Part shown: positions 44,223 to 61,794 of the stretch, in pieces
Layout of the letters: the number at the start of each line of letters is the position of its first letter
How positions within the stretch are numbered: position 1 is the first letter of the stretch
Origin: an uncultured Actinomycetota bacterium
GTDB taxonomy: Bacteria > Actinomycetota > Actinomycetes > Propionibacteriales > Nocardioidaceae
Direction: 5' to 3'
NCBI GenBank assembly: GCA_963812055.1
Contig: CAWEUA010000017.1
Span: 16,253-80,252, forward strand
DNA: 64,000 nt
Program-made: the position numbers and the translations under genes
Notes under the pieces: model-generated
Seen by the model: the letters and a program-made list of their open reading frames with translations, nothing else
The model's database searches: none
What the model was told of the DNA's origin: nothing

Positions 44223-44276
44223 GTCAGCGCCATTCTGTCGTCAGCACGTCACCCTCGGGGCCAGATCACGAGGACA

Positions 44277-45044: not shown

Positions 45045-45066
45045 CCGATCCTCCATTCGTCCCACG

Positions 45067-46071: not shown

Positions 46072-46078
46072 GGGAGGA

Positions 46079-46744
46079 TCATCGCCCTTCGATCGACCCG
46101 AGCACCTCATCGATCGCCGCGAGAGCCGTCTCGATCGACCCGGAGTCACCGGCCAGGTAGAGCCGGCCCGCCGCACCGATCATCGAGACGTCGACCAGGG
46201 TCAGCCCCGGGGCGGCCTTCTCCGCCTCGTTGGCCGCGACCGCCGCGAACAGCGCGGGCGTCATCTCGCACACCAGCAGCGTCTGCCCCGGCATCACCAT
46301 CGAGGCCTGGCGCGTGCGGTTGACGATGATCGCGTGCTGGTCCGAGATGTCCTCGATGACGTCGCGGTAGAGCACCTGCGGCCGCAGCTGGTCGCCGGCC
46401 TTGGCACCGATCCCGGCCAGGATCGCCTCGCCCGCCCGGGCGACGTCGGCGGCATCCGCCGCATGCACCTCGAGCACGCCGAACTGGCGCTCCACGAACA
46501 GGATCCCCGGGTCGACGTCGGGGACCGCCTTGAGCGCGAGGTCGGTGACCCGCTCGATGGCGAGACCGGGCGCGACCTCGATGATCAGCGCGTGCTGACC
46601 GGCGAACGGCGGGTAGCCGCGGGCCCGCGTCGGGGTCCCGAGGTACGCCGCGAACTGGGGCTGCAGGTCGTGGATCGGCAGGTAGACCCGCAGATCCACG
46701 CCCAGCGCCCGCGTCGCGGCCGCCTCGGTGTCCAGGTGGGACAC
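46079..46744 (-). CDS. BMC-T tandem-domain microcompartment shell protein
   Basis: LRVYLPIHDLQPQFAAYL, IEVAPGLAIE, VERQFGVLE, AANEAEKAA, GAAGRLYLAG. Confidence 0.88.
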   Translation of the reverse strand: MSHLDTEAAATRALGVDLRVYLPIHDLQPQFAAYLGTPTRARGYPPFAGQHALIIEVAPGLAIERVTDLALKAVPDVDPGILFVERQFGVLEVHAADAADVARAGEAILAGIGAKAGDQLRPQVLYRDVIEDISDQHAIIVNRTRQASMVMPGQTLLVCEMTPALFAAVAANEAEKAAPGLTLVDVSMIGAAGRLYLAGDSGSIETALAAIDEVLGSIEGR

Positions 46745-46745
46745 G

Positions 46746-47027
46746 TCAGTCGGCGGCGATCGTGAAGTGTCTGCCGACCTCGACGTGCGGCCGCGGGATC
46801 ACGTGGACGGAGACCAGCTCGCCGACCTGCCCGGCCGCCTCCGACCCGGCCTCGGTGGCGGCCTTCACCGCACCGACGTCTCCGATGATGGTGACGGCGA
46901 CGAGTCCGTCGCCGACCTCCTCGCGGCCGACGATGGTGACGTTGGCGGCCTTGACCATGGCGTCCGCGGCCGCGAGCGCAGCGACGTACCCCTTGGTCTC
47001 GATCATGCCGATGGCGTTGTTGGCCAC
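46746..47027 (-). CDS. BMC-H hexameric shell protein (PduA/EutM-like)
   Basis: [42 protein letters not shown]. Confidence 0.96.
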
Positions 47028-47037
47028 GGTTCTCTCC

Positions 47038-47340
47038 TTACCTCTCCTGACCCGGCTCTGCCGGGTCGGGGCTCGTGGTGCTGCTGTCGGACTGGCTGGA
47101 CTGGGGGTCGACGGAGCCGATGATCAGCGCGTCGACCGGTGGATGGCTCTCGCCGAACCAGGCGGAGGCGACGCTGCCCTGCACGACCAGGACCTCCTCA
47201 CCCACCCCGCTGCCGAGCACGTCGAAGGCGACGAACCTGGCCTCGGAGTCGTGGGCGCGGACCTCGAGGAACGCGCCGTGGGGGATCTCCTTCAGCCGAC
47301 GCGACGCCCAGATGGTGCCGGTCACGGTGGCGCGGATCAT
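47038..47340 (-). CDS. BMC-P pentameric vertex protein (EutN/CcmL family)
   Basis: [41 protein letters not shown]. Confidence 0.9.
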
Positions 47341-47810
47341 CGCGTCTCCCTTCCCTGTACGGATGACGGCGTGGTGCGGTCGGTCCGCTCGATGACGACG
47401 CCGAGGGCCCGCGCCCGGTCGCGGGCCAGCGGCGTCACCACGGCTCGTGCGCCGATCCGCAACGTCCGCTGCTCACGGGCCGCTCGCTGGATGATGCGCT
47501 CGGTGACGGCGCCGCGCTCGACGTCGATCGGTCCGGGACCTGTGGGGGCGCCGGTGCCCGCGTCACCGGCCAGCCGGAACCGGATGCGCCCGGCGCGGAG
47601 GTCGGCGGCGCGGTCGGGGTTCTCGGCGAGGTTGAGCACCTGGGTCACGAGGTCGGCCAGGTCGTGGTCGTCGCGGACGCGCACCCGGCGTACGTCGTCT
47701 CCGGGCGGCGCGGCGGCGGTCTCCGGGTCGGAGGCTCCGCGCGGCAGCACCTCCTGCAGGACCTCGCGCACCATCTGCCGCAGGGCCGCGGTCGTGTCGG
47801 CATCGGTCAT
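47337..47810 (-). CDS. BMC-associated hypothetical protein with N-terminal encapsulation-peptide-like helix
   Basis: TTAALRQMVREVLQEVL at the N-terminus; C-terminal AVTERII...AVVTPLARDRARALGVVI; ATGA overlaps on both sides. Confidence 0.75.
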   Translation of the reverse strand: MTDADTTAALRQMVREVLQEVLPRGASDPETAAAPPGDDVRRVRVRDDHDLADLVTQVLNLAENPDRAADLRAGRIRFRLAGDAGTGAPTGPGPIDVERGAVTERIIQRAAREQRTLRIGARAVVTPLARDRARALGVVIERTDRTTPSSVQGRETR

Positions 47811-48448
47811 CCGACGACCTCCGCGAGCGAGGTGAGCGCGGACTCGGCGGCCTCGGCCGCGTGCCGCACGTCGGCCTCCTGGCCGCTCAGGTAGACCCGC
47901 CCGGTGGCGCCCACCATCCGGTAGTCGATGACCTTGATCCCGGGGCCGACGGCCTTCTCGGCCTCGTTCGTCGCCAGGATCGCGTACGACGCCGGCTGCA
48001 TCTCGAGCACGAACACCGACTCGCCCGGCAGGGCCATCGAGCCGAGCTTGTTGCGGTTGACCAGGAACGCGTGCTGGCTGTCGATACGGCTCATGATCGT
48101 GCTCGCCAGGACCTGGGGCCGGGTGGCCGACGACGCGCTCGTGTCGAGGTGCTCCAGCACGGCGCCGGCCGCCGCACGCACCGCGTCGTTGGGGCCGTGG
48201 AACTCCAGGTAGCCGAACTGGCGCTCGACGATCAGCATCCCCGACGAGATCCGCGCGTGCTTGAGCGCGACGTCGGTCAGCGGCTCGATGTCGAGCCCGG
48301 GGGAGACCTCGATGATCTGGGCCGCGTCGCCGGCGCGAGGCAGCGTGCCGCGGATCCAGGAGCCCAGGTAGCACATCGTCTGCGGCTGGAGCCGGTCGAG
48401 ATGGATGAAGCTGCGGAGCTGGGTGCTGGGTTCAGCCACGGTGCCCAC
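47807..48448 (-). CDS. Second BMC-T tandem-domain shell protein
   Basis: LRSFIHLDRLQPQ, IEVSPGLDIE, VERQFGYLEFH, ATNEAEKA, GATGRVYLSG; paralogous to 46079-46744. Confidence 0.88.
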   Translation of the reverse strand: MGTVAEPSTQLRSFIHLDRLQPQTMCYLGSWIRGTLPRAGDAAQIIEVSPGLDIEPLTDVALKHARISSGMLIVERQFGYLEFHGPNDAVRAAAGAVLEHLDTSASSATRPQVLASTIMSRIDSQHAFLVNRNKLGSMALPGESVFVLEMQPASYAILATNEAEKAVGPGIKVIDYRMVGATGRVYLSGQEADVRHAAEAAESALTSLAEVVG

Positions 48449-50033
48449 CGCCGATCAGGTCGTGGAGCTCTTCGACGATGATCCGGCGCAGCTCCTCGCG
48501 GAGGTCGTCGTCGTTCGTCGTCGCGGCCGCGCGCTCGCGGCGTGCCGGCTCGCGGGCAGCGCCGGCATCGTCGCGGGCATTGGACGGGGTCGGGTACGCC
48601 GGCACCGGGCCCGAGGCGGCGCGCCACGGCGTGAGCCCGGCGAAGTCGCCCATCGGCACCGACGCGTCGGCGTTGTGGGCCAGCCGGACCCAGTTGACCA
48701 GGTGGTCCGGTCGGAGGTTCTCGCCGACGGAGGACCCACCGGCGTACCCGGTGCCGATGGTCATCGTCGGCGCCAGGTGGGTCTCGATGCCGGCGCCCCC
48801 GAGGCTGTTGCCGACGTTCACCGAGACCCGGAGCACGTTGCAGGCGACGCCGAACTCGAGGATGGTCGCCGGGTCGGTCGAGTGCACGGCCGCGGAGTGG
48901 CCGGCGCCGCTGATGCGCAGCACGGCCCGCGCCGCCTTGATGCCCGCGGCGGCGCTGGGCACGCGGACCAGCCCCAGGAGCGGCGTCAGCTTCTCGCGGG
49001 CGAGCGGCTCCTCGGGCACCACCTGCTCGAACTCCGCGACCAGCACCTTCGTGTTGTGCGGCACCTGGACGCCCGCCTTCTCCGCCAACCAGGTGGCGGA
49101 CTTGCCCACGACCGCCGGGTCGAACCGGTCGTGGGGGAAGACGAGGTCGCGGACCAACACGGCCTGCTCGGCGTCGAGCAGGTAGGCGCCCGCGGACCGC
49201 ATCGCCCGGGTGAACGCATCGGCCACCCGGTCCTCGACGATCACCACCGACTCGTTCGTGCACAGGCACGAGTTGTCGAACGCCTTGGACTCGACGATCC
49301 GCCGAGCGGCGGCGTTGAGGTCGGCGGTGGCGTCGACGAGCACCGGCACGTTGCCGGGACCGACGCCGAGGGCCGGGGTACCGGAGCGGTACGCCGCGCG
49401 CACGACGGCGTTGCCGCCGGTCGCGACGATCGCACTGGTGCGTGTGTCGGTCATGAGGGCGTCGATCAGGGGGATCGTCGGTTCGCTCACGACCTGCACC
49501 ACTCCGGCTGGCGCCCCGGCTGCCTCGGCGGCGGCGCCCAGGACCCGAGACGCATCAGCACAGACGCGCTTCGCCATCGGGTGCGGACTCACCACGACGG
49601 CGTTGCGGGTCATCAGGCTGAGCAGGATCTTGAAGTAGACGGTGGCCACCGGGTTGGTCGACGGCGTGAGCGCCAGCACGACCCCGGCGGGGCGAGGCAC
49701 CTCGACGATCTTGAGCTCGTCGTCGATGCGGGGCGTGACGAAGTCGGCGCCGGCGTAGAAGTCGAGCACGCCGCGCGAGCACGCCTCGTTCTTGAGCCGT
49801 TTGTGCTCGACGACGCCGAAGCCGGTCTCGGCGACGGCGCGCTCGGCGTACTCCTGCGCGTGGTCCACCGCCGCGGCCACGACGGCCTCGAGGATCCGGT
49901 CCACCGCGGCCTTGTCGAGCATCCGGAACGCGCGGGAGGCCCACTCGGCACGCTCGAGCATCGCCCGCGCCTGCGGTACGTCGGTCGGCTCGGGCTCGAG
50001 GTACGTCGAGCTCAGGGATGTCGTCTCGCTCAT
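48432..50033 (-). CDS. CoA-acylating aldehyde dehydrogenase (EutE/PduP-like) with C-terminal encapsulation peptide
   Basis: PAGVVLALTPSTNP, ATGG, GVGPGNVP, SKAFDNSCLCTNE (catalytic Cys), EKLTP, GHSAAVH; C-terminal DDLREELRRIIVEELHDLIG. Confidence 0.92.
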   Translation of the reverse strand: MSETTSLSSTYLEPEPTDVPQARAMLERAEWASRAFRMLDKAAVDRILEAVVAAAVDHAQEYAERAVAETGFGVVEHKRLKNEACSRGVLDFYAGADFVTPRIDDELKIVEVPRPAGVVLALTPSTNPVATVYFKILLSLMTRNAVVVSPHPMAKRVCADASRVLGAAAEAAGAPAGVVQVVSEPTIPLIDALMTDTRTSAIVATGGNAVVRAAYRSGTPALGVGPGNVPVLVDATADLNAAARRIVESKAFDNSCLCTNESVVIVEDRVADAFTRAMRSAGAYLLDAEQAVLVRDLVFPHDRFDPAVVGKSATWLAEKAGVQVPHNTKVLVAEFEQVVPEEPLAREKLTPLLGLVRVPSAAAGIKAARAVLRISGAGHSAAVHSTDPATILEFGVACNVLRVSVNVGNSLGGAGIETHLAPTMTIGTGYAGGSSVGENLRPDHLVNWVRLAHNADASVPMGDFAGLTPWRAASGPVPAYPTPSNARDDAGAAREPARRERAAATTNDDDLREELRRIIVEELHDLIGGGHRG

Positions 50034-51310
50034 GCCGCTCCCCGGGCGGTGGAGTCGGTCCGGGCGCTGGCGATCCCGACCGCCACCCGGTCGAGGAGCT
50101 CCTCGGCGAGGTCGGGCGTGAGCAGGAGGCCGGGCTTGAACTGCAGCACCTGCGGGTCGAGGGTCGAGAAGATCGCCCACACACCGTGCTCGTACAGGTG
50201 CCGGCTCACCAGCATCGCGCCCCGCGGATGGTCGAACTCGAGCCCGATCACGAGGCCGTCCTGCCGGATTCCGGTGAACCAGCCCGGGTTGTCGTCGCGG
50301 ATCTGGTCGAGCCCCTCACGCAGCAGGTCCGCGAGGTAGTGCACCATCGAACGGGTCTCGGGGCGGCTGCAGATCTCGAGGGTCTTCATCGCGGCGATGC
50401 AGCCGACCTCGGCCCCGCCGAACGTCGACATGTGGGCGAACCCGTCCTCGGTGAGCCAGCCCGCGCACCGCTCGCTGACCAGCACGGCCGCGATCGGGTA
50501 CATGCCGCCCGACAGCCCCTTGCCGGTGACGAGGATGTCCGGCTCGATGCCGTGCTTGGAGATGCACCAGAGCTCGCCGGTGCGCATCAACCCGGTCTGC
50601 ACCTCGTCGGCGACGTACAGCGCGTCGTACCTCTCGCAGAGCTGCTTGACCGTCTCCAGGTAGCCGGGGTCGGGGAGCGGGAAGCCGTACGTCGCGGGGA
50701 TCGACTCCATCAGCACGGCGGCGACGTCGCGACCGCGCAGCGCATCCTCCATCGCTTCGAGGTCGTTGAACGGGACCTGGGCGACCTCGTCCGGACGGTC
50801 GGCGAGGAACAGCTTCGCGAAGCGGTCGTCGCCGGCCGTGACGGCCAGCCCGGTGTGACCGTGGTAGGCCTTCACGATCGAGACGATCTTGCGCTTGCCG
50901 GTGGCGTGCCGGGCCGTCTTGATGGCGATGTCGATGGCCTCGCCCCCGCCGCTGGCGTAGATCACCTTGGTGAGCCCAGGAGGTGCCGACGCGATCAGCG
51001 CCTCCGCGAGGGCGGTCCGCGCCAGCGACGGGAAGTGGTGGTTGCCGATGTCGAAGCGGTGCATCGCCTGCGCGACGGCGGCGACGACCTCGCGGTTGCG
51101 GTGGCCCACGTTGTAGGTGCCGCCGTTGAGATGGGCGTCGATCAGGCGGCGACCCGACATGTCCCAGATCAGGTAGCCCTCACGCCGGTCGATCACCAGG
51201 GGGGTGCCCGAGTCGATCCAGAACTGGGTCTTGCCCGGGTTCCAGAACTCCTTGGCCTTGTCGAGGACCTCCTGCTTGTCCTCGAAGGAGAAGGCCCCGT
51301 AGTCGGTCAC
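50030..51310 (-). CDS. Class III PLP-dependent aminotransferase-fold enzyme (candidate amino-alcohol-phosphate phospho-lyase)
   Basis: SGGGEA, AYHGHT, ESIPATYG, DEVQTG, TGKGLSGG (PLP Lys), STFGG; first gene of the BMC operon. Confidence 0.9.
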   Translation of the reverse strand: MTDYGAFSFEDKQEVLDKAKEFWNPGKTQFWIDSGTPLVIDRREGYLIWDMSGRRLIDAHLNGGTYNVGHRNREVVAAVAQAMHRFDIGNHHFPSLARTALAEALIASAPPGLTKVIYASGGGEAIDIAIKTARHATGKRKIVSIVKAYHGHTGLAVTAGDDRFAKLFLADRPDEVAQVPFNDLEAMEDALRGRDVAAVLMESIPATYGFPLPDPGYLETVKQLCERYDALYVADEVQTGLMRTGELWCISKHGIEPDILVTGKGLSGGMYPIAAVLVSERCAGWLTEDGFAHMSTFGGAEVGCIAAMKTLEICSRPETRSMVHYLADLLREGLDQIRDDNPGWFTGIRQDGLVIGLEFDHPRGAMLVSRHLYEHGVWAIFSTLDPQVLQFKPGLLLTPDLAEELLDRVAVGIASARTDSTARGAA

Positions 51311-51396: not shown

Positions 51397-51565
51397 AACC
51401 TGAAACAAACAAAATTGATCGCAGATCTTGTGCGGCGTCGCTCGGCGGTGCGACTCTCGTGCCGCTCGGGGTGATCCAGGACACATCGGTACGGACGCGT
51501 CCGGCTCTCGCTCCAGGGGTTCATGGAGTGGGTGCGAGCGGTCCACAGAGAAGGGCGACCTCTCG

Positions 51566-53164
51566 ATGACGACCCAAGACACCACAGGCAGCGAGTTCGT
51601 CGAGGTGCCGGTCGACTCCGGCCACAAGCTCAAGACCGGGGCCATCGGCATGGTCGCGGTGCTGTTCATGGCGACCGCGAACGCGGCGCCGATCACCGCG
51701 ATGAGCGCGAACACGCCGATCGCGGTCGGCTACGGCAACGGCCTGGCCGCGCCCGGCGGCTTCCTCTTCGCGACCATCGTGCTGACCCTGTTCGCGGTCG
51801 GCTTCGTCGCGATGGCGCGCCACGTCACCACCACAGGTGCGTTCTACGGCTTCATCTCCCAGGGACTGGGTCAGGTCTGGGGCATGGCGGCGGGTCTGGT
51901 CGCCACCTTGGCGTACGTCGTGTTCGAGGGCTCGCTGATCGGCGTGTTCAGCTACTTCACCCAGTCGACGCTGGACTCGTGGTGGGGCATCAAGCCGAAC
52001 TGGTTCCTGATCGCCGTCATCGGCATCGTGCTGATCGCCCTGTTCGGCCACTACGACATCAACATCGCGGCCGCCTTCCTCGGCGTCTGTCTCGTCGCCG
52101 AGGTGCTCCTGCTGGCCGCGATGGCGTTCACGGTGCTCTTCCACGGCGGTGGGGACGACGGCCTGATCCCCGGTGCGATCAACCCGCTCAACGCGTTCAA
52201 GTCACTCGTCGAAGGCGGCAACATGCCCGGCTCGTCGGTGTCCCTCGGGGCCTCGATCGACGGCACCCAGGTCGCCGCCGGCTCCGCAGCGATCGGCGTG
52301 TTCTTCGCCTTCTGGTCGTGGGTCGGCTTCGAGACCACGGCGGTCTACGGCGAGGAGTCGCGCGACCCGAAGCGGATCGTGCCCCCGGCGACCATGATCG
52401 CGGTCGTCGGCCTGGGCATCTTCTACACCTTCGTGTCGTGGATGGCGGTCTCCGGCACGGGCGCCAAGGAGTCGATCACGACCTCGGCCGGCAGCAACCC
52501 CGTCGACCTGATGAAGGGCACCTTCGAGCAGTACCTCGGCCACCCGTCGACGTACCTCTTCGACTTCCTGATCGTGACCGGCTCCTTCGCCTGCGCGTTG
52601 GCCTTCCACAACGCGGCGTCGCGCTACATCTACGCGATCGGGCGTGAGATCCCCCGCACCCAGAACAACCTGGGTTCGACGCACAAGCACCACGGGTCGC
52701 CGCACATCGCGTCGGCCACCCAGTCGGCGATCACCCTCGTGATCACGATCCTGTTCTGGGCGAAGATGGGCAACGACGTCGTCCAGGCGGCCTACATCTA
52801 CGAGTACGGCGTGCTGGCGGTGCTCGGGACGATGGCGATCCTGCTGGTGCAGGCGCTCTGCTCGATCGCGGTGATCTGGTACTTCCAGGTGAAGAAGGTC
52901 CACCACGGCAACTTCTGGACCACGGGCGTGATCCCGGCGCTCGGCGCGATCGGGATGCTCTACGTCTGCTACCTGCTGTTCAGCAACCTGTCCTTCGCCG
53001 GCGGTGCCGCGTCGGGGTCGCTGCTCTACAAGCTGATCCCCTACATCGTCGGGGCGACCTTCGTCATCGGGCTGCTCTTCATGTTCCTGCTCAAGCAGCG
53101 CGACCCGGAGCAGTACGCACGCATCGGCCGCACCGTGCTGGAGGACGCCCACGAGCGGGACTGA
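51566..53164 (+). CDS. APC family amino acid/amine permease
   Basis: About 12 TM segments; MATANAAP, GAFYGFISQGLG, WSWVGFETTAVYGEE, HGSPHIA. Confidence 0.9.
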   Translation: MTTQDTTGSEFVEVPVDSGHKLKTGAIGMVAVLFMATANAAPITAMSANTPIAVGYGNGLAAPGGFLFATIVLTLFAVGFVAMARHVTTTGAFYGFISQGLGQVWGMAAGLVATLAYVVFEGSLIGVFSYFTQSTLDSWWGIKPNWFLIAVIGIVLIALFGHYDINIAAAFLGVCLVAEVLLLAAMAFTVLFHGGGDDGLIPGAINPLNAFKSLVEGGNMPGSSVSLGASIDGTQVAAGSAAIGVFFAFWSWVGFETTAVYGEESRDPKRIVPPATMIAVVGLGIFYTFVSWMAVSGTGAKESITTSAGSNPVDLMKGTFEQYLGHPSTYLFDFLIVTGSFACALAFHNAASRYIYAIGREIPRTQNNLGSTHKHHGSPHIASATQSAITLVITILFWAKMGNDVVQAAYIYEYGVLAVLGTMAILLVQALCSIAVIWYFQVKKVHHGNFWTTGVIPALGAIGMLYVCYLLFSNLSFAGGAASGSLLYKLIPYIVGATFVIGLLFMFLLKQRDPEQYARIGRTVLEDAHERD

Positions 53165-53167
53165 CGG

Positions 53168-54208
53168 GTGACCACTGCTCCCGGGGCAGCGCCCATCCGC
53201 TACGAGCCCGATCCGGACGGCGATCCGGCCCGGCTCACCTACACGTTCGGCGGCGTGGAGCCGGTGGCGTCACTCGCACCCGGCTCCGCGCTCTCGACGT
53301 GGACCTTCGACTGTTTCGGTGGTCGGGTGCGCTCGGCGGCGGACGTGGTCTCGGAGGTCTGCGACCCGGCGTACCTCAACCCGCAGACGGGTCCGTTCTT
53401 CATCGAGGGCGCCGAGCCGGGCGACACGTTGGCGGTGCACTTCGTCTCGATCGAGCCGCGCGAGGCCTGGGGCGTCTCGGCCAACGTGCCGTTCTTCGGG
53501 TCGCTCACGGCCACCCCGACCACCGCGATGCTCCACCCGGCACTGCAGGAGCGCACCTGGTACTACGAGCTGGACCTCGAGGACCGGTTGGTGCGGTACG
53601 AAGCCGTCGACTCGACGTTCGCCCTCGACCTCCCGCTGGACCCGATGCACGGCACGGTCGGGGTCGCGCCGCCGCTGGGCGAGGCACGGTCGTCGCTGAC
53701 GCCGGGCTCCTGGGGCGGGAACATGGACACGCCCGAGATGCGCACGGGCGTCACCTGCTACCTGGGGGTGAACGTCCCGGGCGCCATGTTCAGCCTGGGC
53801 GACGGCCACGCCCGCCAGGGTGAGGGGGAGACCTGCGGCGTCGCCGTCGAGACGGCGATGGACACGGTCGTGATCGTCGACCTGGTGAAGGGGGTGCCCA
53901 CCGTGTGGCCGCGGATCGAGTCCGAGACCCACATCATCTCGACGGGCTCGACGAAGCCGCTCGAGGACGCCTTCCGGATCGCGCACGCCGACATGACCGG
54001 ATGGGTCGGTGCGGAGCTCGGCCTCTCACCGCTCGACGCGTACCAGCTGGTCACCCAGGTCGTGGAGTCGCCGGTGGCCAACGTGGTCGACACCGTCTAC
54101 ACGATGACCGCCAAGGTCGCGAAGACCTACCTGCCGGGAGTCCTGGCGTACGACGGCATCCACGAGCGCCTCCGTGCCCAGGCCGCCGCTCTCCGGGAGC
54201 TGGCGTGA
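53168..54208 (+). CDS. Acetamidase/formamidase family protein
   Basis: NPQTGPFFIEGAEPGDTL, PMHGTVGVAP, WGGNMD, LGDGHARQGEGE-CGVAVE. Confidence 0.88.
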   Translation: MTTAPGAAPIRYEPDPDGDPARLTYTFGGVEPVASLAPGSALSTWTFDCFGGRVRSAADVVSEVCDPAYLNPQTGPFFIEGAEPGDTLAVHFVSIEPREAWGVSANVPFFGSLTATPTTAMLHPALQERTWYYELDLEDRLVRYEAVDSTFALDLPLDPMHGTVGVAPPLGEARSSLTPGSWGGNMDTPEMRTGVTCYLGVNVPGAMFSLGDGHARQGEGETCGVAVETAMDTVVIVDLVKGVPTVWPRIESETHIISTGSTKPLEDAFRIAHADMTGWVGAELGLSPLDAYQLVTQVVESPVANVVDTVYTMTAKVAKTYLPGVLAYDGIHERLRAQAAALRELA

Positions 54209-54630
54209 AGGTCGACCTCGACCTCGCCGAGCAGATGGCGCGCGCCGCGTGTGCGGCCGCGGCCGACGAGCAGTGTCTGGTGTCCGCTGCCGTGGTCGAT
54301 GCCGGCGGCCACCTGGTCGCGTTCCGGAGGATGGACGGCGCCGAGTTCGCCGGGGCCACGGTCGCGGTCGACAAGGCGTACACGGCGGCGGGCAACCGCA
54401 TCGCGACCCTGGCCCTGCGCGACCTGGTGGGCCCCGGGCTCGACCTGACCGGGTACTACGCGGCGTCCGGTGGGCGGTTCATCGCGTTCGGCGGCGGCGT
54501 CCCGTTGTGGTACGACGGGCTCGTGGCGGGTGCGGTCGGTGTCAGCGGAGCGAGCGGCGAGCAGGACCATGCGTTCGCCTCGGCCGCGGCGTCGCTCTGG
54601 GCGGACGCAGGGGGTGCGCTCGATGCCTGA
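54205..54630 (+). CDS. GlcG/HbpS-family heme-binding protein (PduO C-terminal-domain-like)
   Basis: AVVDAGGHLVAFRRMDGA, AVDKAYTAA, FGGGVPL, GAVGVSGASGEQD. Confidence 0.85.
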   Translation: MKVDLDLAEQMARAACAAAADEQCLVSAAVVDAGGHLVAFRRMDGAEFAGATVAVDKAYTAAGNRIATLALRDLVGPGLDLTGYYAASGGRFIAFGGGVPLWYDGLVAGAVGVSGASGEQDHAFASAAASLWADAGGALDA

Positions 54631-56872
54631 CTCGCAGGAGCCGATCGGGCGGGTCCGGTTCATGGACGCGCAGCGGGTGAACCTGGACGGCTTCGCCACG
54701 GAGAACGCCGCGCTCGGCATGATCGCCTACGACTCGCCGTCGGACCCCACCGCGTCGCTGGTCGTCCGCGACGGCCGCGTGGTCGAGATGGACGGGAAGG
54801 CCGAGGACGACTTCGACAGCATCGACGAGTTCATCGCCCGCCACGGGCTCGACCTCGAGGTCGCCGACGAGGCGATGGCGGTCGACGACCTCGCCTACGC
54901 CCGGATGCTGGTGGACCCCGCCGTCCCGCGCGCCGAGCTGGTCCGGCTCGCGAGCGGCATGACGCCGGCGAAGCTGGCCGCCCCCCTCGGGCTGCTGCGT
55001 CCGGCCGAGCTGATGATGGCGATGACCAAGGTGCGGGCACGACGTACGCCGAGCAACCAGGCGCACGTCACCAACCGCCTGGACGACCCGTTGCTGCTGG
55101 CCGCCGACGCGGCGACGGCCGCGGCGTTCGGCTTCCGCGAGCTCGAGACCACCGTGCCGGTCCTGAACGACGCCCCGTCCAACGCCCTGGCGGTCACCCT
55201 GGGCTCGGTCGTCGGTGCGCCCGGCGTGCTCGTGCAGTGCTCGGTCGAGGAGGCCCTGGAGCTCGAGCTCGGGATGCGCGGCTTCGTGTCGTACGCCGAG
55301 ACCGTGTCGCTCTACGGCACCCACGAGGTCTTCGTCGACGGTGACGACACCCCGTGGTCGAAGGCGCTGCTGGCGTCGGCGTACGCCTCGCGTGGGGTCA
55401 AGATGCGGGTCACGTCGGGCGGCGGGGCCGAGGCGCTGATGGGTGGCGCGCAGGGGCACTCGATGTTCTACCTCGAGGCGCGGTGCGTCGCCCTGGCGCG
55501 CGCGATCGGCGCGCAGGGCGTGCAGAACGGCGGCATCGACTCGGCGTCCGTGGCCGCCTCGGTGCCGAAGGGCGTGCGCTCCCTGGCCGCGGAGAACCTG
55601 ATGGTGATGCTCCGCAACCTCGAGTCCTGCTCGGGCAACGACGCCCTGATGAGCGAGTCGGAGATGCGGCGTACGGCGCGCACCCTGCCGACCCTGCTGG
55701 CCGGCTCGGACTTCATCTGCTCGGGCTTCGGCTCGATCCAGCGCTTCGACAACATGTTCGGCCCGAGCAACCTCAACGCCGAGGACATCGACGACTTCCT
55801 GGCCATCCAGCGCGACTGGGGGGTCGACGGCGGGCTCCGGACGACCGACACCGAGCAGCTCGAGCACCTGCGGCGGCGGGCCGCGCAGGTGGCGCGCGAC
55901 GTGTACGCGTGGTTCGGCCTGGCCGACTTCACCGACGAGCAGGTCGAGCTCGCCATGGATGCCGCCGGCTCGAAGGACCTCGGGACGACCGACACGTTGG
56001 CCGTGCTGAACGCGGCGCACACCATCAAGACGTCGGGCATGACCGGTCTGGACGTCGTCTCGGCGCTCCAGCAGTGCGGGTACCCCGACGAGGCGCAGCG
56101 GCTCCTCGACATGCTGGCCGCGCGGGTCAGCGGCGACTACCTGCAGACCGCGGCGATCTTCGACGAGCAGATGAACGTGCTCTCGCTGGTGACCGACCCG
56201 AACGACTACCTCGGACCCGGAACGGGCTACGACCCGACGCCGGAACGGCAGGCCGAGATCGACGCGATCCGGCAGCAGCGCTCGGTGGACGACCTGCGCC
56301 GGGCCCAGGACGACCCCGAGGAGTTCGCGCGGTTCTCGGTGGTCGGCGAGGCCGGCATCGGGACCGCGGCCGGTGAGGTCGTGATCGGGCTGTCCCCGGC
56401 GGTCGGTCGCGCGATCAGCCGGACCCTCTCGGGCCTGACCGTCTCGGAGGCGCTGGCCGAGGTGCTCGCCGGACTCGAGGAGGAGGGGTGCACCGCACGG
56501 CTGGTGCGGATCAACGACTCGATCGACCTCGGCTCCATCGGGCTCAAGGCGGCGCGGCTCGCAGGGTCGGGCATCGGCATCGGTCTGCAGGCGAAGGGGA
56601 CGGCGCTGATCCACCGGCGTGACCTGGCGCCGCTGGCGAACCTCGAGCTGTACAGCGTCGCGCCCACGATCGGACGTCCCGACTACCGGCTGCTGGGCGT
56701 GAACGCCGGTCGTCACGCGAAGGGCGCGACCCCCGACCCGGCGCGCAACCCGTACTCCGACGAGGCCATCGAGGCGCGCTACCACACGCGCGTCGTCGCC
56801 CTGGTCGCGATCGAGCGAGCCCTGGCCACGGGCGGAGCGCCCGAGGAGCTCGCCTGGAAGGGGGAGCCGTGA
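54623..56872 (+). CDS. pduC: Adenosylcobalamin-dependent diol/glycerol dehydratase family, large (alpha) subunit fused to medium (beta) subunit
   Basis: Alpha motifs RARRTPSNQAHVTN, ELETT, YAETVSLYG, DGDDTPWSK, SRGVKMR, YLEARC, QNGG, DNMFG, QRDWGVDGGLR; from about 56333 beta motifs EVVIGLSPAVG, GLEEEG, GSGIGIGLQAKGT, NLELY. Confidence 0.93.
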   Translation: MPDSQEPIGRVRFMDAQRVNLDGFATENAALGMIAYDSPSDPTASLVVRDGRVVEMDGKAEDDFDSIDEFIARHGLDLEVADEAMAVDDLAYARMLVDPAVPRAELVRLASGMTPAKLAAPLGLLRPAELMMAMTKVRARRTPSNQAHVTNRLDDPLLLAADAATAAAFGFRELETTVPVLNDAPSNALAVTLGSVVGAPGVLVQCSVEEALELELGMRGFVSYAETVSLYGTHEVFVDGDDTPWSKALLASAYASRGVKMRVTSGGGAEALMGGAQGHSMFYLEARCVALARAIGAQGVQNGGIDSASVAASVPKGVRSLAAENLMVMLRNLESCSGNDALMSESEMRRTARTLPTLLAGSDFICSGFGSIQRFDNMFGPSNLNAEDIDDFLAIQRDWGVDGGLRTTDTEQLEHLRRRAAQVARDVYAWFGLADFTDEQVELAMDAAGSKDLGTTDTLAVLNAAHTIKTSGMTGLDVVSALQQCGYPDEAQRLLDMLAARVSGDYLQTAAIFDEQMNVLSLVTDPNDYLGPGTGYDPTPERQAEIDAIRQQRSVDDLRRAQDDPEEFARFSVVGEAGIGTAAGEVVIGLSPAVGRAISRTLSGLTVSEALAEVLAGLEEEGCTARLVRINDSIDLGSIGLKAARLAGSGIGIGLQAKGTALIHRRDLAPLANLELYSVAPTIGRPDYRLLGVNAGRHAKGATPDPARNPYSDEAIEARYHTRVVALVAIERALATGGAPEELAWKGEP

Positions 56873-57237
56873 GCCCGGCGACCGGCAAGGCCTGGTCGGG
56901 GCGCCCGGCGTCCGAGCTGAGCGTCGACGGGGTCGTCGGGGGCGAGCTGGGTCCCGACGACATCCGGATCAGCCCCGAGACCCTGCGGCACCAGGCCGAC
57001 GTGGCCCGGGCCCACGCGAACCCCCAGCTGGCGGCGAACTTCGAGCGCGCGGCCGAGCTGACGGCGTTCGACGAGTCGGACATCCTCGCGCTCTACGAGC
57101 TGCTCCGGCCGGGTCGTTCGACGGGCGACCAGCTGCGGGCGAAGGCGGACGAGCTCGAGGCCCGCGAGGCGCCGATCTGTGCGGCGTTCGTGCGCGAGGC
57201 CGCGGCGGTGTACGAGCGGACCGGCCTGACGGCGTGA
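56869..57237 (+). CDS. pduE: Diol/glycerol dehydratase small (gamma) subunit
   Basis: DIRISPETLRHQA, LAANFERAAELT, LYELLRPGRST, FVREAAAVY. Confidence 0.88.
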   Translation: MSPATGKAWSGRPASELSVDGVVGGELGPDDIRISPETLRHQADVARAHANPQLAANFERAAELTAFDESDILALYELLRPGRSTGDQLRAKADELEAREAPICAAFVREAAAVYERTGLTA

Positions 57238-57255
57238 CACCACCATGACCCGGCC

Positions 57256-58839
57256 ATGACGGGGGACCTGGTCGCCGGCATCGACATCGGCAACGCGACC
57301 ACCGAGATCGTCTTCGCGCGCTCTGCTCAGGGCAGACTCACGCCGGTCCTGGCCGAGCAGGTCCCCACCCGCGGCGCGAAGGGTTCGGCGACGTCGGTCA
57401 CGGCCGCGGCCGCCCTGGTCCGGCGGATGTCCGAGCGGCTGGGCGAGCCGCCGGTCCGGGGGGCCGTCGCCCGACTGACGCCGGTGCACACCGGGGTCGT
57501 CAGCGGCGTCGCGGCTGGAGCCGACACCGGCCGGCTGTCCGTCGTCCCGGTCGAGGGGCGGACGCTGGTCCACGCCGGCGCGGCCGTCGGGCGGGGCGTC
57601 TGGGTCGACCAGCTCGAGAGTGCGACCGGACCGGTCGTCGCCCTGGTCCGGTCGGGGACCGGGTACGCCGAGGCCGCCGCTGCCGTGAACCGGGCGGCCG
57701 CCGACGTCGTCGCCGTGGCCCTGGCCGACGACGAGGCGGTGCTGGTCGGCAACCGGTTGGAGTCGCGGGTCCCGGTGCTCGACCAGGTGCCGGTCGAGCG
57801 GCTCGCGGCCGCCTCCCGCGTCGCCCTGGAGGTGGCTTCTCCGGGCGGCGCGCTGGCGCGGGTCGTCGACCCGCTGTGGCTCTCGTCGGAGCTCGGCCTC
57901 GACGCCGCGGACCGGTCCCTTGCGGCGACGGCCGCGTCGCAGCTCGCCGGGCGGTCGTCGGGTCTCGTGCTGCTGGAGACGTCTCCAGCAGCTTCATCCG
58001 CCACGCCGGACGACCTCTCCGCGGTCGTGCGGGTCGAGGGCGGATGGCGCCTGGCCGACACCCGCACGACGTACGCCGACCTGGCTGTGGTCGACGTCAC
58101 CGAGATCGCGTGGCCGCACGAGCCCGGCGACCACCGGCTGGCCGCGGCGTACCTCGCCGGCGAGGAGTCGGCGGTCGACCCGTCCGCCGCGCTCGCCGAG
58201 CGGCTCGGCTTCCCGGTCGAGCTGGTGACGGACGAGGCGGGGATGGCCGAGCTCGGCGCGGCGAGCACGCCGGGCGCCGATCCGGACGCGGCGGTGCTCG
58301 ACCTGGGTGCCGGCACGGCCGATCTCGTGGTGGCCGGGGCCGCGGAGACCCGGGCCGGGTGCGGAGCGCTGCTGACGCTGGCGGTCGCGCAGGCGCTCGG
58401 GATCACGCGAGGGTCGGCGGAGTGGGTGAAGCGCGGCCCGTGCGTCCGGGTCGAGGGTCCGACGGTGCGGGTGGCCGAGACGGGGGAGCGGTACCTCGAC
58501 GACACTCCCGCGCCGTCCTCGGCGATCGGCCGGCTCGCCGTACCCGGACCCGCCGGCCTGCTCGGCTTCGGCGCGGAGCTCCCCGCGGCGTCGTGGCGCG
58601 CGGCCCGGTGGGCGCTGAAGGAGGCGGTGCTCGGTCGGGCGCTGCGCGAGACCGGGCTGACGCTGCCCGCCACGCTGGTCGTGGTCGGTGGTCCCGCCGG
58701 CGACGACGAGGCGCTGACCGCCGTCTCCGCCCTGGTCCCTCCCGGCACCGTGGTCGGCCGGGCGAACGTCGCCGGCGTCCTCGGTCACCGTCACGCCGTC
58801 GCGTGGGGCCTCGCCCTCACCGCCGCATCTCGCTTGTAA
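57256..58839 (+). CDS. pduG: Diol dehydratase reactivase alpha subunit (PduG/DdrA-like)
   Basis: AGIDIGNATTE, TRGAKGS, LADDEAVLVGNRL, VLDLGAGTAD, VVVGG, HAVAWGL. Confidence 0.82.
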   Translation: MTGDLVAGIDIGNATTEIVFARSAQGRLTPVLAEQVPTRGAKGSATSVTAAAALVRRMSERLGEPPVRGAVARLTPVHTGVVSGVAAGADTGRLSVVPVEGRTLVHAGAAVGRGVWVDQLESATGPVVALVRSGTGYAEAAAAVNRAAADVVAVALADDEAVLVGNRLESRVPVLDQVPVERLAAASRVALEVASPGGALARVVDPLWLSSELGLDAADRSLAATAASQLAGRSSGLVLLETSPAASSATPDDLSAVVRVEGGWRLADTRTTYADLAVVDVTEIAWPHEPGDHRLAAAYLAGEESAVDPSAALAERLGFPVELVTDEAGMAELGAASTPGADPDAAVLDLGAGTADLVVAGAAETRAGCGALLTLAVAQALGITRGSAEWVKRGPCVRVEGPTVRVAETGERYLDDTPAPSSAIGRLAVPGPAGLLGFGAELPAASWRAARWALKEAVLGRALRETGLTLPATLVVVGGPAGDDEALTAVSALVPPGTVVGRANVAGVLGHRHAVAWGLALTAASRL

Positions 58840-58906
58840 CACGCCGTCCAGAGCTGTTCCACGTCGTTGCGTCGGCGTGGAAGAGCTGTGGACAGCGTGT
58901 TACAAG
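58833..58906. terminator. Long imperfect hairpin between convergent reactivase and MocR genes
   Basis: CTTGTAACACGC (58833-58844) / GCGTGTTACAAG (58895-58906) with inner TTCCACG/CGTGGAA pairing. Confidence 0.55.
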
Positions 58907-58907
58907 G

Positions 58908-60242
58908 TCAGCGATGCCCGGCCCAGGTGCCGGCGCGGGCGGCGTCGGCGACCAGGTCGGCGACGCCGTCGTGGGAGCCGTTCAGCGAGGAGGTGGTGAT
59001 CCGGATGTGGTCGGACCCGGGCGGGGAGATCCAGAACGGGTCGCCGCTCGCGGCGCGGACGCCGGCCGCGGCCAGGTGGAGCAGCGCCGCGCCTTGCTCG
59101 GCCACCGGCACCCAGACGTTGATCCCGTCGCGGCCGGGCACCTCGACCCCGCGACCCGCGAGCGCGTCGACCATCGCGGCCGTCCGGGCGGCGTACGTCG
59201 CCTGCGCGTCCGCCACGAGCGTCCGCGAGGACTCGTCGGTGAGCAGGTCGAGCAGGATCGACTGCACCAGCCGGCTGCTCCATCCCTGCCCGAGGTAACG
59301 CCGCTCCACGATCGGCCCGACGATGCGCGCCGGCCCCCCGATGGCGGCGAGCCGCAGGTCCGGACCATGGGTCTTGGAGAAGCTCCGCACGAGCACGGTG
59401 CGGTCGGGGAGCAGGCTTCCCAGCGACACGGGAGACCCGGACGGCGTGCCCCCGGCCGAGTCGTCCTCGACCACGAGGACGTCCCGACCCACGAGCGCGG
59501 CGGCCAAGTCCTCGGCTCGTGACTGCGACAGCGACTGACCCGACGGGTTCTGCCCCCACGGCTGGAAGAAGAGGACCTTCGCGCCGGCGTCCATGGCGGC
59601 CACGGCATCCGCGACCACCGGCCCCTCGGCGTCGTACCCGACCGCGATCGGAACGGCGCCCGCCATCTCCAGGAGGTCGAGCAGCGGGGGGAAGCACGGC
59701 TGCTCGACCGCGACCCGGTCGCCGAACCGCAGGTGCGCGGCGACGAACTGGCTGTGGGCGTCCATGGCCCCGTCCACGACGGTCAGGGCCTCGACCGGGT
59801 TGGGCCACGACTCCTCCAGCACCGCGCGCAGGGCGGGCACGACGGGCTCCTCGAGGTAGGAGTGCGCCGTGTCGTCCCGTGGCACGCGCTGCATCGCGGC
59901 GTGCAGGTCGGGCAGGAGGCGCGGATCGGGGAGTCCGGTCGAGAGGTCGACCCGGTAGCCCGCGTGGGAGTCGAGCGCGCGACGGTAGCGACGCGGCCCG
60001 ACCGACGCCTCGCGCACCCGCGTGCCGCGACGGCCGTCGGTCTCGATCAGCCCGGCCCGCGCGAGCTGCGACCAGGCAGCGCTGATGGTGGCAGGAGCGA
60101 CCTGGAGGTCGCGGGCCACCCGGCGGATCGGGGGGAGTCGCTCGCCGGGTCGCAGGACGCCGCGGTCGATGCCGGCGGACAGGGCGAGGGCGATGCCCTT
60201 CGCCGAGTGGTCGTCCACCGCATCGACCAGCTCCTGCCACAT
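58908..60242 (-). CDS. MocR/GabR-family PLP-dependent transcriptional regulator (GntR HTH + aminotransferase-like domain)
   Basis: GERLPPIRRVARDLQVAPATISAAW, GRRGTRV, EQPCFP, QNPSG, VEDD, RSFSKTHGPDLRLA. Alternative start 60254. Confidence 0.9.
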   Translation of the reverse strand: MWQELVDAVDDHSAKGIALALSAGIDRGVLRPGERLPPIRRVARDLQVAPATISAAWSQLARAGLIETDGRRGTRVREASVGPRRYRRALDSHAGYRVDLSTGLPDPRLLPDLHAAMQRVPRDDTAHSYLEEPVVPALRAVLEESWPNPVEALTVVDGAMDAHSQFVAAHLRFGDRVAVEQPCFPPLLDLLEMAGAVPIAVGYDAEGPVVADAVAAMDAGAKVLFFQPWGQNPSGQSLSQSRAEDLAAALVGRDVLVVEDDSAGGTPSGSPVSLGSLLPDRTVLVRSFSKTHGPDLRLAAIGGPARIVGPIVERRYLGQGWSSRLVQSILLDLLTDESSRTLVADAQATYAARTAAMVDALAGRGVEVPGRDGINVWVPVAEQGAALLHLAAAGVRAASGDPFWISPPGSDHIRITTSSLNGSHDGVADLVADAARAGTWAGHR

Positions 60243-60272
60243 GTTTTGTAACATAGCAATGAAAGCATTGCT
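60241..60272. promoter_or_regulatory. Candidate MocR operator palindromes in the divergent promoter
   Basis: ATGTT-TTGT-AACAT (60241-60254) and AGCAATG-AAAG-CATTGCT (60255-60272). Confidence 0.5.
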
Positions 60273-60303
60273 CCAGGTAGGGGTAGGTCGATATTTTCAT
60301 CCC

Positions 60304-61794
60304 ATGACCACCCGGATCCCCCACTGGACCAATGGCGCCGCGACCCAGGGCGGCTCCGGCCGCTCCGGCGCCGTCTTCAACCCCGCGACGGGCGAGCAGA
60401 CCGGCGAGGTCGACCTCGCCAGTGCCGCCGAGCTCGACGCCGCCGTCGCGAGCGCGACCGAGGCCGCCGCCATCTGGCGGTCGGCGTCGCTCGCCACCCG
60501 CACCGGCGTCCTCTTCAAGTTCCGCGAGCTGCTCGCGTCGTCCATGGACGAGCTGGCCGAGATCGTCACCGCCGAGCACGGCAAGGTGCTCTCGGACGCC
60601 AAGGGCGAGATCCAGCGCGGGCTCGAGAACGTCGAGTACGCCTGCGGCGTGGCCGACCACATGAAGGGTGGCTACTCCGAGCAGGCCGGCACCGGCGTGG
60701 ACGTCTACTCGATCCGCCAGCCCCTGGGCGTGGTCGCCGGCATCACGCCGTTCAACTTCCCGGTCATGGTGCCGCTGTGGATGTGTGCCAACGCGATCGC
60801 GACCGGCAACGCCTTCATCCTCAAGCCGAGCGAGAAGGACCCGTCGGCCTCGCTGTTCCTGGCCGAGCTGTGGAAGAAGGCCGGCCTCCCCGACGGCGTC
60901 TTCTCCGTCGTCAACGGCGACAAGGAGGCGGTCGACGCGATTCTCGGCCACGCGGGCATCGCCGCGGTGAGCTTCGTCGGCTCCACCCCGATCGCGCGTT
61001 ACATCTACGAGACCGGCACCCGCAACGGCAAGCGTGTCCAGGCCCTCGGCGGCGCGAAGAACCACATGCTCGTGCTGCCCGACGCCGATGTCGAGATGGC
61101 CGCGGATGCTGCCGTCTCGGCGGCGTACGGCGCGGCGGGCGAGCGCTGCATGGCGATCTCCGTGGCCGTGGCGGTCGGCGACGTGGCCGACCCACTGGTC
61201 GACGCGATCGCCGCCCGCCTGCCCAAGCTCCGCATCGGCGACGGCACCGACCCCGACTCCGAGATGGGTCCCTTGATCACCCGCGAGCACCGCGACAAGG
61301 TCGCCGACTACATCCGGCAGGGCGTCGAGTCCGGCGCGACCGCGGTGGTCGACGGCCGCGAGGCCGACGTCCCGAGCGACGGCTTCTTCCTCGGTACGAC
61401 GCTCCTGGACAAGGTCAGCCCCGAGATGACCGTCTACACCGACGAGATCTTCGGACCGGTGCTCTGCGTCGTCCGGCAGGAGTCGTACGACGACGCGATC
61501 GAGCTGATCAACAGCAACCCGTTCGCCAACGGCACCGCGATCTTCACCCGCGACGGCGGCGCCGCCCGGCGGTACCAGTTCGACGTCGAGGTCGGCATGG
61601 TCGGCGTCAACGTCCCGATCCCGGTCCCGGTGTCCTACTACTCGTTCGGTGGCTGGAAGGCGTCGCTGTTCGGCGACACCCACATGTACGGGCCCGAGGG
61701 GATCGCCTTCTACACCCGCGGCAAGGTGGTCACGTCGCGCTGGCCCGACCCGGCCACGTCGACGATCGACCTCGGCTTCCCGACCCACCGCTGA
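60304..61794 (+). CDS. mmsA: CoA-acylating (methyl)malonate-semialdehyde dehydrogenase
   Basis: ITPFNFPVMVPLW, KPSEKDP, FVGSTP, QALGGAKNH, YGAAGERCMA, EIFGPVL, VGVNVPIPVP, FGGWKASLFGD, KVVTSRWP. Confidence 0.93.
   Translation: MTTRIPHWTNGAATQGGSGRSGAVFNPATGEQTGEVDLASAAELDAAVASATEAAAIWRSASLATRTGVLFKFRELLASSMDELAEIVTAEHGKVLSDAKGEIQRGLENVEYACGVADHMKGGYSEQAGTGVDVYSIRQPLGVVAGITPFNFPVMVPLWMCANAIATGNAFILKPSEKDPSASLFLAELWKKAGLPDGVFSVVNGDKEAVDAILGHAGIAAVSFVGSTPIARYIYETGTRNGKRVQALGGAKNHMLVLPDADVEMAADAAVSAAYGAAGERCMAISVAVAVGDVADPLVDAIAARLPKLRIGDGTDPDSEMGPLITREHRDKVADYIRQGVESGATAVVDGREADVPSDGFFLGTTLLDKVSPEMTVYTDEIFGPVLCVVRQESYDDAIELINSNPFANGTAIFTRDGGAARRYQFDVEVGMVGVNVPIPVPVSYYSFGGWKASLFGDTHMYGPEGIAFYTRGKVVTSRWPDPATSTIDLGFPTHR

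Follow-up and report, generated by a model that had tools for sequence, protein, structure and literature searches.

The diol and glycerol dehydratases belong to the most thoroughly studied B12 enzymes, and they have industrial uses. To our knowledge, every characterised member acts on a neutral diol. A natural variant with an altered substrate pocket is encoded at positions 54623-57237 of the DNA analysed here (the window: 64,000 nucleotides of contig CAWEUA010000017.1, assembly GCA_963812055.1, from an uncultured member of the Nocardioidaceae), next to a microcompartment operon for amino-alcohol catabolism. The enzyme, predicted from its sequence to be a catalytically complete adenosylcobalamin (AdoCbl)-dependent diol-dehydratase-type enzyme with a fused alpha-beta subunit and a gamma subunit, carries an aspartate at the position of a substrate-contacting serine. 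This Asp301 marks a genuine and conserved variant, so far undescribed, of an enzyme that is otherwise well known. The closest relatives of the window are Nocardioides metagenome-assembled genomes, with dehydratase proteins of 93-96% identity.

The closest described enzymes are the Klebsiella dehydratases PddABC and GldABC/DhaB (PDB 1dio, 1eex, 3auj, 1iwp, 9vii). The window enzyme shares with them about 50% alpha-subunit identity, the domains PF02286, PF02288 and PF02287, the same Ca2+ ligands, and the catalytic residues His143, Glu170 and Asp335; a homologue of the reactivase large subunit is encoded beside it. It differs in the fusion of its alpha and beta subunits, in the missing N-terminal extensions of beta and gamma, and in its genetic context, which is amino-alcohol catabolism rather than the pdu or dha regulon. 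Ethanolamine ammonia-lyase, EutBC, is a more distant point of comparison. Both are AdoCbl radical enzymes with a TIM-barrel large subunit, and EutBC, which handles a vicinal amino alcohol, is the conceptual B12 counterpart of a kinase/phospho-lyase route. The fold similarity is distant (TM 0.51-0.57, 12-14% identity), EutBC has no Ca2+ site, and in EutBC the amine migrates, not the hydroxyl. The window proteins gave no EutB or EutC match in Pfam.

The microcompartment next door is of the known RMM2/AAUM type, devoted to aminoacetone and 1-amino-2-propanol. According to Mallette and Kimber, the AAUM pathway reportedly runs from a dehydrogenase through a kinase and a phospho-lyase to propionaldehyde, which passes to an acylating aldehyde dehydrogenase (ALDH). 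The product of 50030-51310 presumably acts as the phospho-lyase, a role carried over from the Mycobacterium smegmatis AAUM. RMM2 was described as the RMM type with genes for a diol dehydratase added on the other strand, and it was judged that the dehydratase is probably unused by the organelle, or else that the organelle is bifunctional (Axen et al. 2014, PMC4207490). A permease for amino acids and a GntR regulator are also described RMM locus components (PMC4207490), and the RMM2/AAUM2 type is treated in Sutter et al. 2021 (PMC8217296) without comment on the dehydratase.

The window contains the whole set of this type: a BMC-H/T/P shell, dehydrogenase, kinase, aminotransferase-fold enzyme, acylating ALDH, GntR regulator and permease. 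Its kinase matches the structure of the M. smegmatis (S)-1-amino-2-propanol kinase (6ef6), its dehydrogenase matches 6ci8/6ci9, and its shell proteins match MSM0272 and MSM0271. The plus-strand operon with the dehydratase adjoins the shell operon on the minus strand, as described for RMM2 (PMC4207490). An earlier note on the window had read the amine permease and the microcompartment as fitting a 3-aminopropanal product; both belong instead to this known locus type, which makes propionaldehyde. The window agrees with the RMM2 of Axen et al. in its complete set of RMM genes, but the dehydratase here belongs to the pocket-altered clade, whose linkage spans two phyla and includes loci that have no shell.

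Active site and substrate pocket

In phmmer searches, the active-site region aligns without gaps to two Klebsiella enzymes, the glycerol dehydratase of K. pneumoniae (9vii, 1iwp) and the diol dehydratase of K. oxytoca (1dio). Residues are given here in K. oxytoca numbering, obtained by subtracting 5 from the residue number of the window protein. The Ca2+ ligands Gln141, Glu170, Glu221, Gln296 and Ser362 are kept, as are the catalytic His143 and Asp335 and also Phe374; the Ca2+ ligands, His143 and Asp335 are invariant in the 36-sequence alignment behind an AlphaFold2 model. With both the Ca2+ site and the radical machinery intact, the enzyme should operate like a diol dehydratase.

The pocket around the C3 substituent of the substrate, as far as the alignment indicates, is remodelled. 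The Klebsiella motif QNGAVSC reads QNGGIDS in the window protein and NDQTFS reads NDALMS, which places Asp306 at the Ser301 position and Ala341 at the Gln336 position. The canonical C3 pair is therefore not kept, and other positions are altered as well. In all, Gly299, Asp301, Ala303, Ala336, Leu337 and Glu340 stand where Klebsiella has Ser/Ala, Ser, Ile, Gln, Thr and His, and Gly365 also belongs to the altered set. These changes add a carboxylate and take away bulk at 299, 303 and 336. The earlier note had reported the retained catalytic and Ca2+-binding residues as well as the two altered codons (Table 1), and the ungapped alignment agrees with it on each.

The AlphaFold2 model, a check proposed in the same note, has the diol dehydratase fold (TM 0.89 to the alpha chains of 5ysh, 1iwp and 1dio) and offers no independent view of the pocket, whose loops are poorly modelled (predicted local distance difference test score, pLDDT, < 50 at about residues 336-361 and 367-382). 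Because these loops are unreliable, it is the ungapped alignment, with its roughly 50% identity, that together with the published structures places Asp301 in the pocket.

In K. oxytoca diol dehydratase, Ser301 and Gln336 touch the C3 hydroxyl of glycerol, Ser301 in one binding mode, which bears out for these two residues the premise of the earlier note that positions 301 and 336 lie at substrate C3 and that their mutation alters substrate behaviour (PMC7674605). The Km for 1,2-propanediol is 0.06 mM in the wild type, 0.38 mM in S301A, 0.57 mM in Q336A and 2.4 mM in S301A/Q336A (PMC7674605), a 40-fold rise for the double mutant (Yamanishi et al. 2012, summarised in PMC7674605). The S301A and Q336A substitutions lower inactivation by glycerol 5- to 14-fold while 1,2-propanediol activity is retained (PMC7674605). 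The mutants thus show that both residues govern how the C3 substituent is handled and also mechanism-based inactivation. The natural clade is altered at the same two positions as these engineered enzymes, but its residue 301 is charged and additional co-varying changes are present.

These measurements bear on a rival reading, in which the window enzyme is an ordinary dehydratase of a neutral diol, 1,2-propanediol, and supplies the RMM organelle with propionaldehyde by a second route, while its changes at 301 and 336 serve to avoid glycerol binding and mechanism-based inactivation. This reading is unlikely, though it deserves serious consideration: the engineered mutants behave in the required way, and it corresponds to the bifunctional option of Axen et al., in which both routes meet at propionaldehyde and use a common acylating ALDH and shell (PMC4207490). 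The 40-fold poorer Km of the double mutant for propanediol (PMC7674605) counts against it. Alanine at 301 would also serve this purpose, yet the charged aspartate is kept in every locus of the clade.

The Asp301 clade

Related loci were collected in two scans. The first yielded 81 actinobacterial loci, taken from one-genome-per-species contigs, with dehydratases of 70-96% identity, and QNGGID[S/G/A] and GNDALM occur in 81/81. The carriers include Nocardioides, Streptosporangiaceae, Kineosporiaceae, Nanopelagicales and Actinoplanes. The second scan, seeded with a 51%-identical representative, yielded alphaproteobacterial loci with dehydratases of 48-54% identity, and QNGG[I/V]DG is present in 80/80 of them; Ancylobacter, Hyphomicrobium, Shinella, Aestuariivirga, Ruegeria and Dongia are among the carriers. 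Asp301 is therefore invariant in the clade (161/161 loci), and position 336 is Ala in all 81 actinobacterial loci and Ala, Thr, Cys or Val in the Alphaproteobacteria.

A HMMER search of 1.84 billion cluster representatives separates three motif classes, namely Ser301/Gln336, Ser301/Ala336, and Asp301 combined with Ala, Thr, Asn, Ser or Cys336. A maximum-likelihood tree unites the Asp301 sequences from the two phyla in a single clade (support 0.997). Further clade-specific residues, absent from the earlier note, are Gly299, Ala303, Gly365, Ile367 and Asn380, with Glu340 in place of His in most members. No publication on this clade or its substrate was found in the literature, and a GRM review makes no mention of aminopropanol.

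The Ser301/Ala336 class provides a natural control. These enzymes, found in Gaiellales/Thermoleophilia (P0122-like), resemble the window enzyme in their fused alpha and beta subunits and their Ala336, at about 49% identity. They differ in keeping Ser299, Ser301, Val303 and His340 and in having the gamma gene upstream. Their loci (L162-L241; QNGSISC, GNDAIA) have a generic short-chain dehydrogenase (SDR) and ALDH nearby, AAUM genes in 0/53 well-flanked loci and no amine genes. The exchange of Gln336 for Ala was accordingly rejected as part of a unique signature, for Ala336 also accompanies Ser301 in this clade without amine context. The proposal in the earlier note that the pocket binds a C3 amine thus loses the Gln336 change as a specific argument, and is strengthened by the invariant aspartate and by an amine-catabolic context unlike that of the control clade.

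Linkage to amino-alcohol genes

Linkage was counted in loci flanked on each side by 8 kb or more, an AAUM orthologue being a kinase, dehydrogenase or aminotransferase. Such an orthologue lies near the dehydratase in 43/44 actinobacterial Asp/Ala loci, 26/28 alphaproteobacterial Asp/Ala loci and 5/5 alphaproteobacterial Asp/Cys loci. It is found in only 2/23 alphaproteobacterial loci with Asp/Thr or Asp/Val. The co-occurrence that the earlier note had suggested surveying is therefore present in 69/72 Asp/Ala loci. Fisher tests give p = 4e-32 for Asp/Ala against Ser/Ala and p = 8e-16 for Asp/Ala against Asp/Thr,Val, values that have to be read with the caution that species counts are not phylogenetically independent.

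Several features nevertheless speak for a real link: it persists in at least three gene orders in Actinobacteria, in two phyla, and without shell genes. Most alphaproteobacterial loci have an SDR, a kinase and a phospho-lyase-like aminotransferase, but neither shell nor acylating ALDH. Compared with the proteins of the window, these dehydrogenases are 58-69% and the kinases 41-52% identical; the best NCBIfam match of the aminotransferase is the aminotransferase half of kinase-aminotransferase fusions, and a PotD-like binding protein and an APC permease are further partners. This shell-less linkage ties the dehydratase to the upper, amine-handling part of the pathway and not merely to the disposal of propionaldehyde. 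It also weakens the propanediol reading, which would lead one to expect an acylating ALDH or a shell among the partners. The Ser301/Ala336 clade, which resembles a neutral-diol enzyme and is free of AAUM linkage, counts against that reading as well. RMM shell genes do occur in a few alphaproteobacterial loci (L112, L114, L142, L154 and L161, from Aestuariivirga and others). With the Nocardioides proteins, their BMC-H shares 83-85% and their MSM0271-like BMC-T about 71% identity. The dehydratases reach only 50%, and this wide gap suggests that the shell module passed between the phyla recently.

The phyletic distribution is nested. Of 151 Nocardioidaceae genomes, 9 encode the kinase and 5 the dehydratase, and all five dehydratase carriers (5/5) are kinase-positive. 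Twelve loci appear to have no kinase; for ten of these the genome encodes one at another place, which lies immediately outside the fetched flank in the cases with comparable coordinates. The dehydratase is therefore better seen as an add-on to the kinase route than as its replacement, and a replacing role is disfavoured.

This pattern bears on two further readings. In the first, a variant of the amino-diol reading with a different product, an amino-diol such as 3-amino-1,2-propanediol would be converted to aminoacetone by abstraction of hydrogen from C2 and migration of the 1-hydroxyl, and aminoacetone would then pass to the SDR, kinase and phospho-lyase. Such a step would explain why the dehydratase never occurs without the kinase, and why its tightest linkage is to the aminoacetone reductase orthologue (the SDR is present in 26/28 alphaproteobacterial Asp/Ala and 5/5 Asp/Cys loci); it also fits the missing encapsulation-type N-terminal extensions. 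The conversion is nevertheless improbable. We know of no diol or glycerol dehydratase that makes a ketone from a terminal 1,2-diol, so that the regiochemistry is unprecedented and purely inferred, and the argument linking Asp301 to C3 presumes the normal binding mode, which yields an aldehyde.

In the second, 1-amino-2-propanol itself is dehydrated: its hydroxyl would move from C2 to C1, and the resulting carbinolamine would collapse to propionaldehyde and ammonia, a B12 shortcut beside the kinase and phospho-lyase. The relation of ethanolamine ammonia-lyase to an ethanolamine kinase/phospho-lyase route offers an analogy, the inducer, permease and product would be those of the AAUM, and the linkage to the dehydrogenase that makes 1-amino-2-propanol is tight. 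There is little to recommend this shortcut all the same, because the amine would sit in the unchanged O1 site (Ca2+, Glu170, Gln296) whereas the changes lie in the C3 pocket. An alternative route should also sometimes displace the kinase, but carriers nearly always keep it. Finally, no B12 riboswitch that could switch between routes, nor any other RNA, was found with Rfam (gathering threshold on 40-64 kb; E<=1 on 54100-54700).

Other members of the clade have related surroundings. Asp301/Thr336 loci are without AAUM genes in most cases, yet their neighbourhoods are amine-related. One example is Shinella pollutisoli (L090:14231-20916, Asp/Thr), where a PotD-like ABC importer is accompanied by a dimethylglycine-dehydrogenase-like flavoenzyme, an iron-type alcohol dehydrogenase (Fe-ADH), an ALDH and an SDR. 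The Asp301/Thr336 subtype may act on an N-methylated amino-diol. BADH-like ALDH and PotD-like binding proteins are found in other contexts of the clade, and a few Asp/Thr loci, such as that of Ruegeria, instead adjoin a sugar/polyol-type ABC system.

A nitrogen-bearing diol as candidate substrate

The carboxylate in the C3 pocket and the amine-catabolic linkage, when combined, point to an amine-bearing substrate. Our confidence that this substrate is a vicinal diol with a cationic nitrogen on the C3 side is evenly balanced. The broader proposal, that Asp301 enzymes are amino-diol dehydratases whose pocket carboxylate binds the cationic nitrogen and that the Asp301/Ala336 form converts an amino-diol to an amino-carbonyl (3-aminopropanal or aminoacetone), is tentative and falls a little short of an even balance. 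The particular conversion of 3-amino-1,2-propanediol to 3-aminopropanal is doubtful when taken by itself and accounts for the smaller part of the confidence given to an amine-bearing diol. The best explanation for the Asp301+Ala336 subtype is that it forms a dedicated accessory arm of aminoacetone/1-amino-2-propanol (RMM2/AAUM) catabolism.

In the proposed mechanism, the 5'-deoxyadenosyl radical would abstract a hydrogen from C1 of the vicinal diol, the Ca2+-bound 2-hydroxyl would then migrate to C1, and the gem-diol would lose water. The simplest candidate substrate is 3-amino-1,2-propanediol, for which Asp301 could act as a counter-ion or hydrogen-bond acceptor. Normal regiochemistry would give 3-aminopropanal, and abstraction of the C2 hydrogen would give aminoacetone. 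The reactivase encoded downstream would serve the dehydratase. In Pdu systems, the N-terminal extensions of PduD and PduE are encapsulation peptides; given that extensions of this type are missing here, the dehydratase may act in the cytosol.

Several observations weigh against a nitrogen-bearing substrate, in addition to the non-independence of the species counts and the poorly modelled pocket loops. The S301A and Q336A mutants of the K. oxytoca enzyme still turn over 1,2-propanediol, hence a neutral diol is possible (PMC7674605). Arg337, present in 29/30 sampled alphaproteobacterial Asp/Ala enzymes, could pair with Asp301 and neutralise it, which would weaken the counter-ion argument. There is no conserved downstream enzyme for 3-aminopropanal: methylmalonate/malonate-semialdehyde dehydrogenase (MMSDH) is found in 6/81 actinobacterial loci and a BADH-like ALDH in few alphaproteobacterial ones. 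3-Amino-1,2-propanediol also lacks an established natural source. The 3-aminopropanal route in particular leaves the dependence of the dehydratase on the kinase pathway unexplained.

If an amine-bearing diol is indeed the substrate, the acidic-pocket clade would add a new reaction class to these enzymes and would provide a natural template for engineering inactivation resistance as well as substrate range. The purpose of the RMM2 diol dehydratase, in question since the gene was described in 2014 as probably of no relevance to the organelle, would then be explained. Many Actinobacteria and Alphaproteobacteria of soil and freshwater, whether or not they have a microcompartment, would possess an extended aminoacetone/aminopropanol pathway. 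Since the clade is found in abundant freshwater (Nanopelagicales) and soil lineages (Streptosporangiaceae, Hyphomicrobiales), its substrate may be an overlooked source of nitrogen and carbon.

Reactivase, amide hydrolases and other neighbours

The reactivase accompanies the dehydratase in 42/44 well-flanked actinobacterial loci. No gene for a reactivase small subunit follows the large-subunit gene of the window, where the open reading frame 58867-59298 has no family match. In ten alphaproteobacterial carriers (L116, L108, L130, L090, L085, L147, L153, L110, L099 and L118), a reactivase (PF08841) is not recognisable anywhere in the genome. The clade may be resistant to inactivation or rely on a repair factor yet to be recognised. 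An enzyme resistant to inactivation is what the propanediol reading predicts, and these ten genomes speak in its favour.

Two non-homologous amide hydrolases are inherited together with the Asp/Ala dehydratase. In Actinobacteria this is the FmdA/AmdA amidase, whose orthologues (67-68% identity) are confined to dehydratase-positive genomes among the 6 genomes tested. In most alphaproteobacterial Asp/Ala loci it is an isochorismatase-family (BiuH/RutB-like) hydrolase encoded directly after the gamma gene (e.g. L153:12539-13411). Their co-inheritance points to an unrecognised step of amide or ureido hydrolysis. The earlier note had counted the amidase as a supporting neighbour; it occurs in 31/81 actinobacterial loci.

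A reading that gives these hydrolases a direct role places a carboxamide or ureido group at C3. Glyceramide, for example, would be converted to 3-oxopropanamide, from which the amidase would free malonate semialdehyde for MMSDH. The tracking of the dehydratase by both hydrolases and the MMSDH gene adjacent in the window agree with this scheme. It remains highly improbable, since it leaves the near-universal linkage to aminopropanol genes unexplained, MMSDH is lineage-specific, and most loci have no amidase.

Other neighbours vary among the related loci. An HbpS-like gene is present in 19/44 well-flanked actinobacterial loci and an APC permease in 51/81. Orthologues of the MocR regulator and MMSDH, which the earlier note had taken as a supporting beta-alanine-type module, are limited to 6/81 related loci, all of them close Nocardioides. 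This distribution removes the module as conserved support, and the two genes probably form a separate module.

Gene organization of the window

The window has a G+C content of 71%. Third-position G+C frame analysis, combined with Pfam and NCBIfam searches, reveals two divergent operons, one on the minus strand (43434-51310) and one on the plus strand (51428-58839), whose features are listed in Table 1.

Table 1. Features of the two operons and adjacent genes, in window positions
Feature	Position	Strand	Evidence
GntR/UTRA regulator of the RMM operon	43434-44222	-	PF07702, PF00392
Aminopropanol/aminoacetone short-chain dehydrogenase orthologue	44277-45065	-	PDB 6ci8/6ci9, E 6e-98; PF13561
(S)-1-amino-2-propanol kinase orthologue, APH family	45067-46176	-	PDB 6ef6, E 2.2e-99; PF01636
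RMM shell genes, whole set	46079-48448	-	PF00936, PF03319
MSM0271-like BMC-T	46079-46744	-	PDB 5suh (MSM0271), E 1.4e-91
BMC-H	46746-47027	-	PDB 5l38 (MSM0272), E 2.4e-41, given for the shell set
BMC-P	47038-47340	-	PF03319, for the shell set
Further BMC-domain protein	47807-48448	-	
Microcompartment acylating aldehyde dehydrogenase	48432-50180	-	TIGR02518 (EutE-type) 388 bits; NF011927
Class-III aminotransferase-fold enzyme, presumed aminopropanol-phosphate phospho-lyase	50030-51310	-	PF00202 233 bits
APC-family amino acid/amine permease, at the start of the plus-strand operon	51428-53164	+	PF13520 72.5 bits
FmdA/AmdA-family amidase	53168-54208	+	PF03069 83 bits; PDB 5ubu, E 9e-63
HbpS-like/DUF336 (PduO C-terminal-type) small protein	54211-54630	+	PF03928 114.3 bits
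Fused alpha-beta subunit, AdoCbl-type diol dehydratase, 749 aa, Asp301/Ala336 variant	54623-56872	+	PF02286 778.8 bits; PF02288 88.7 bits
GAC codon, Asp306 = Asp at the Ser301 position (K. oxytoca numbering)	55538-55540	+	phmmer alignment
GCC codon, Ala341 = Ala at the Gln336 position	55643-55645	+	phmmer alignment
Dehydratase small (gamma) subunit, 122 aa	56869-57237	+	PF02287 116.6 bits
Diol dehydratase reactivase large subunit, 527 aa	57256-58839	+	PF08841 115 bits; PF18427 59.7 bits
MocR-type regulator	58908-60254	-	NF012025 241 bits
CoA-acylating methylmalonate/malonate-semialdehyde dehydrogenase (MMSDH)	60022-61794	+	TIGR01722 697 bits, cut-off 448.5

The fused alpha-beta protein scores 840 bits against NF011979 (cut-off 788), and phmmer against PDB chains gives E 1.8e-202 for 9vii and E 2.3e-165 for 1dio. 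Its beta part begins at the equivalent of 1dio_B residue 48, without the PduD-like N-terminal extension, and the gamma subunit aligns to positions 55-167 of the 174 in NF011972, without a PduE-like one. The HbpS-like gene occupies an apparent 414-nt gap between the amidase and the dehydratase, and its stop overlaps the dehydratase ATG at 54623 (ATGCCTGA). The HbpS-like/DUF336 domain (PF03928) is also found at the C-terminus of PduO adenosyltransferases, and the genome encodes an adenosyltransferase of the PduO type.

On the minus strand, the class-III aminotransferase-fold enzyme is 72-97% identical across the related loci. The acylating ALDH has an N-terminal extension of about 65 aa, its Aldedh domain starting at residue 67. 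The minus-strand stretch 41487-43153, immediately upstream of the gene for the RMM regulator, encodes a ZnuA-type metal-binding protein and an ABC ATPase, both unrelated to the dehydratase.

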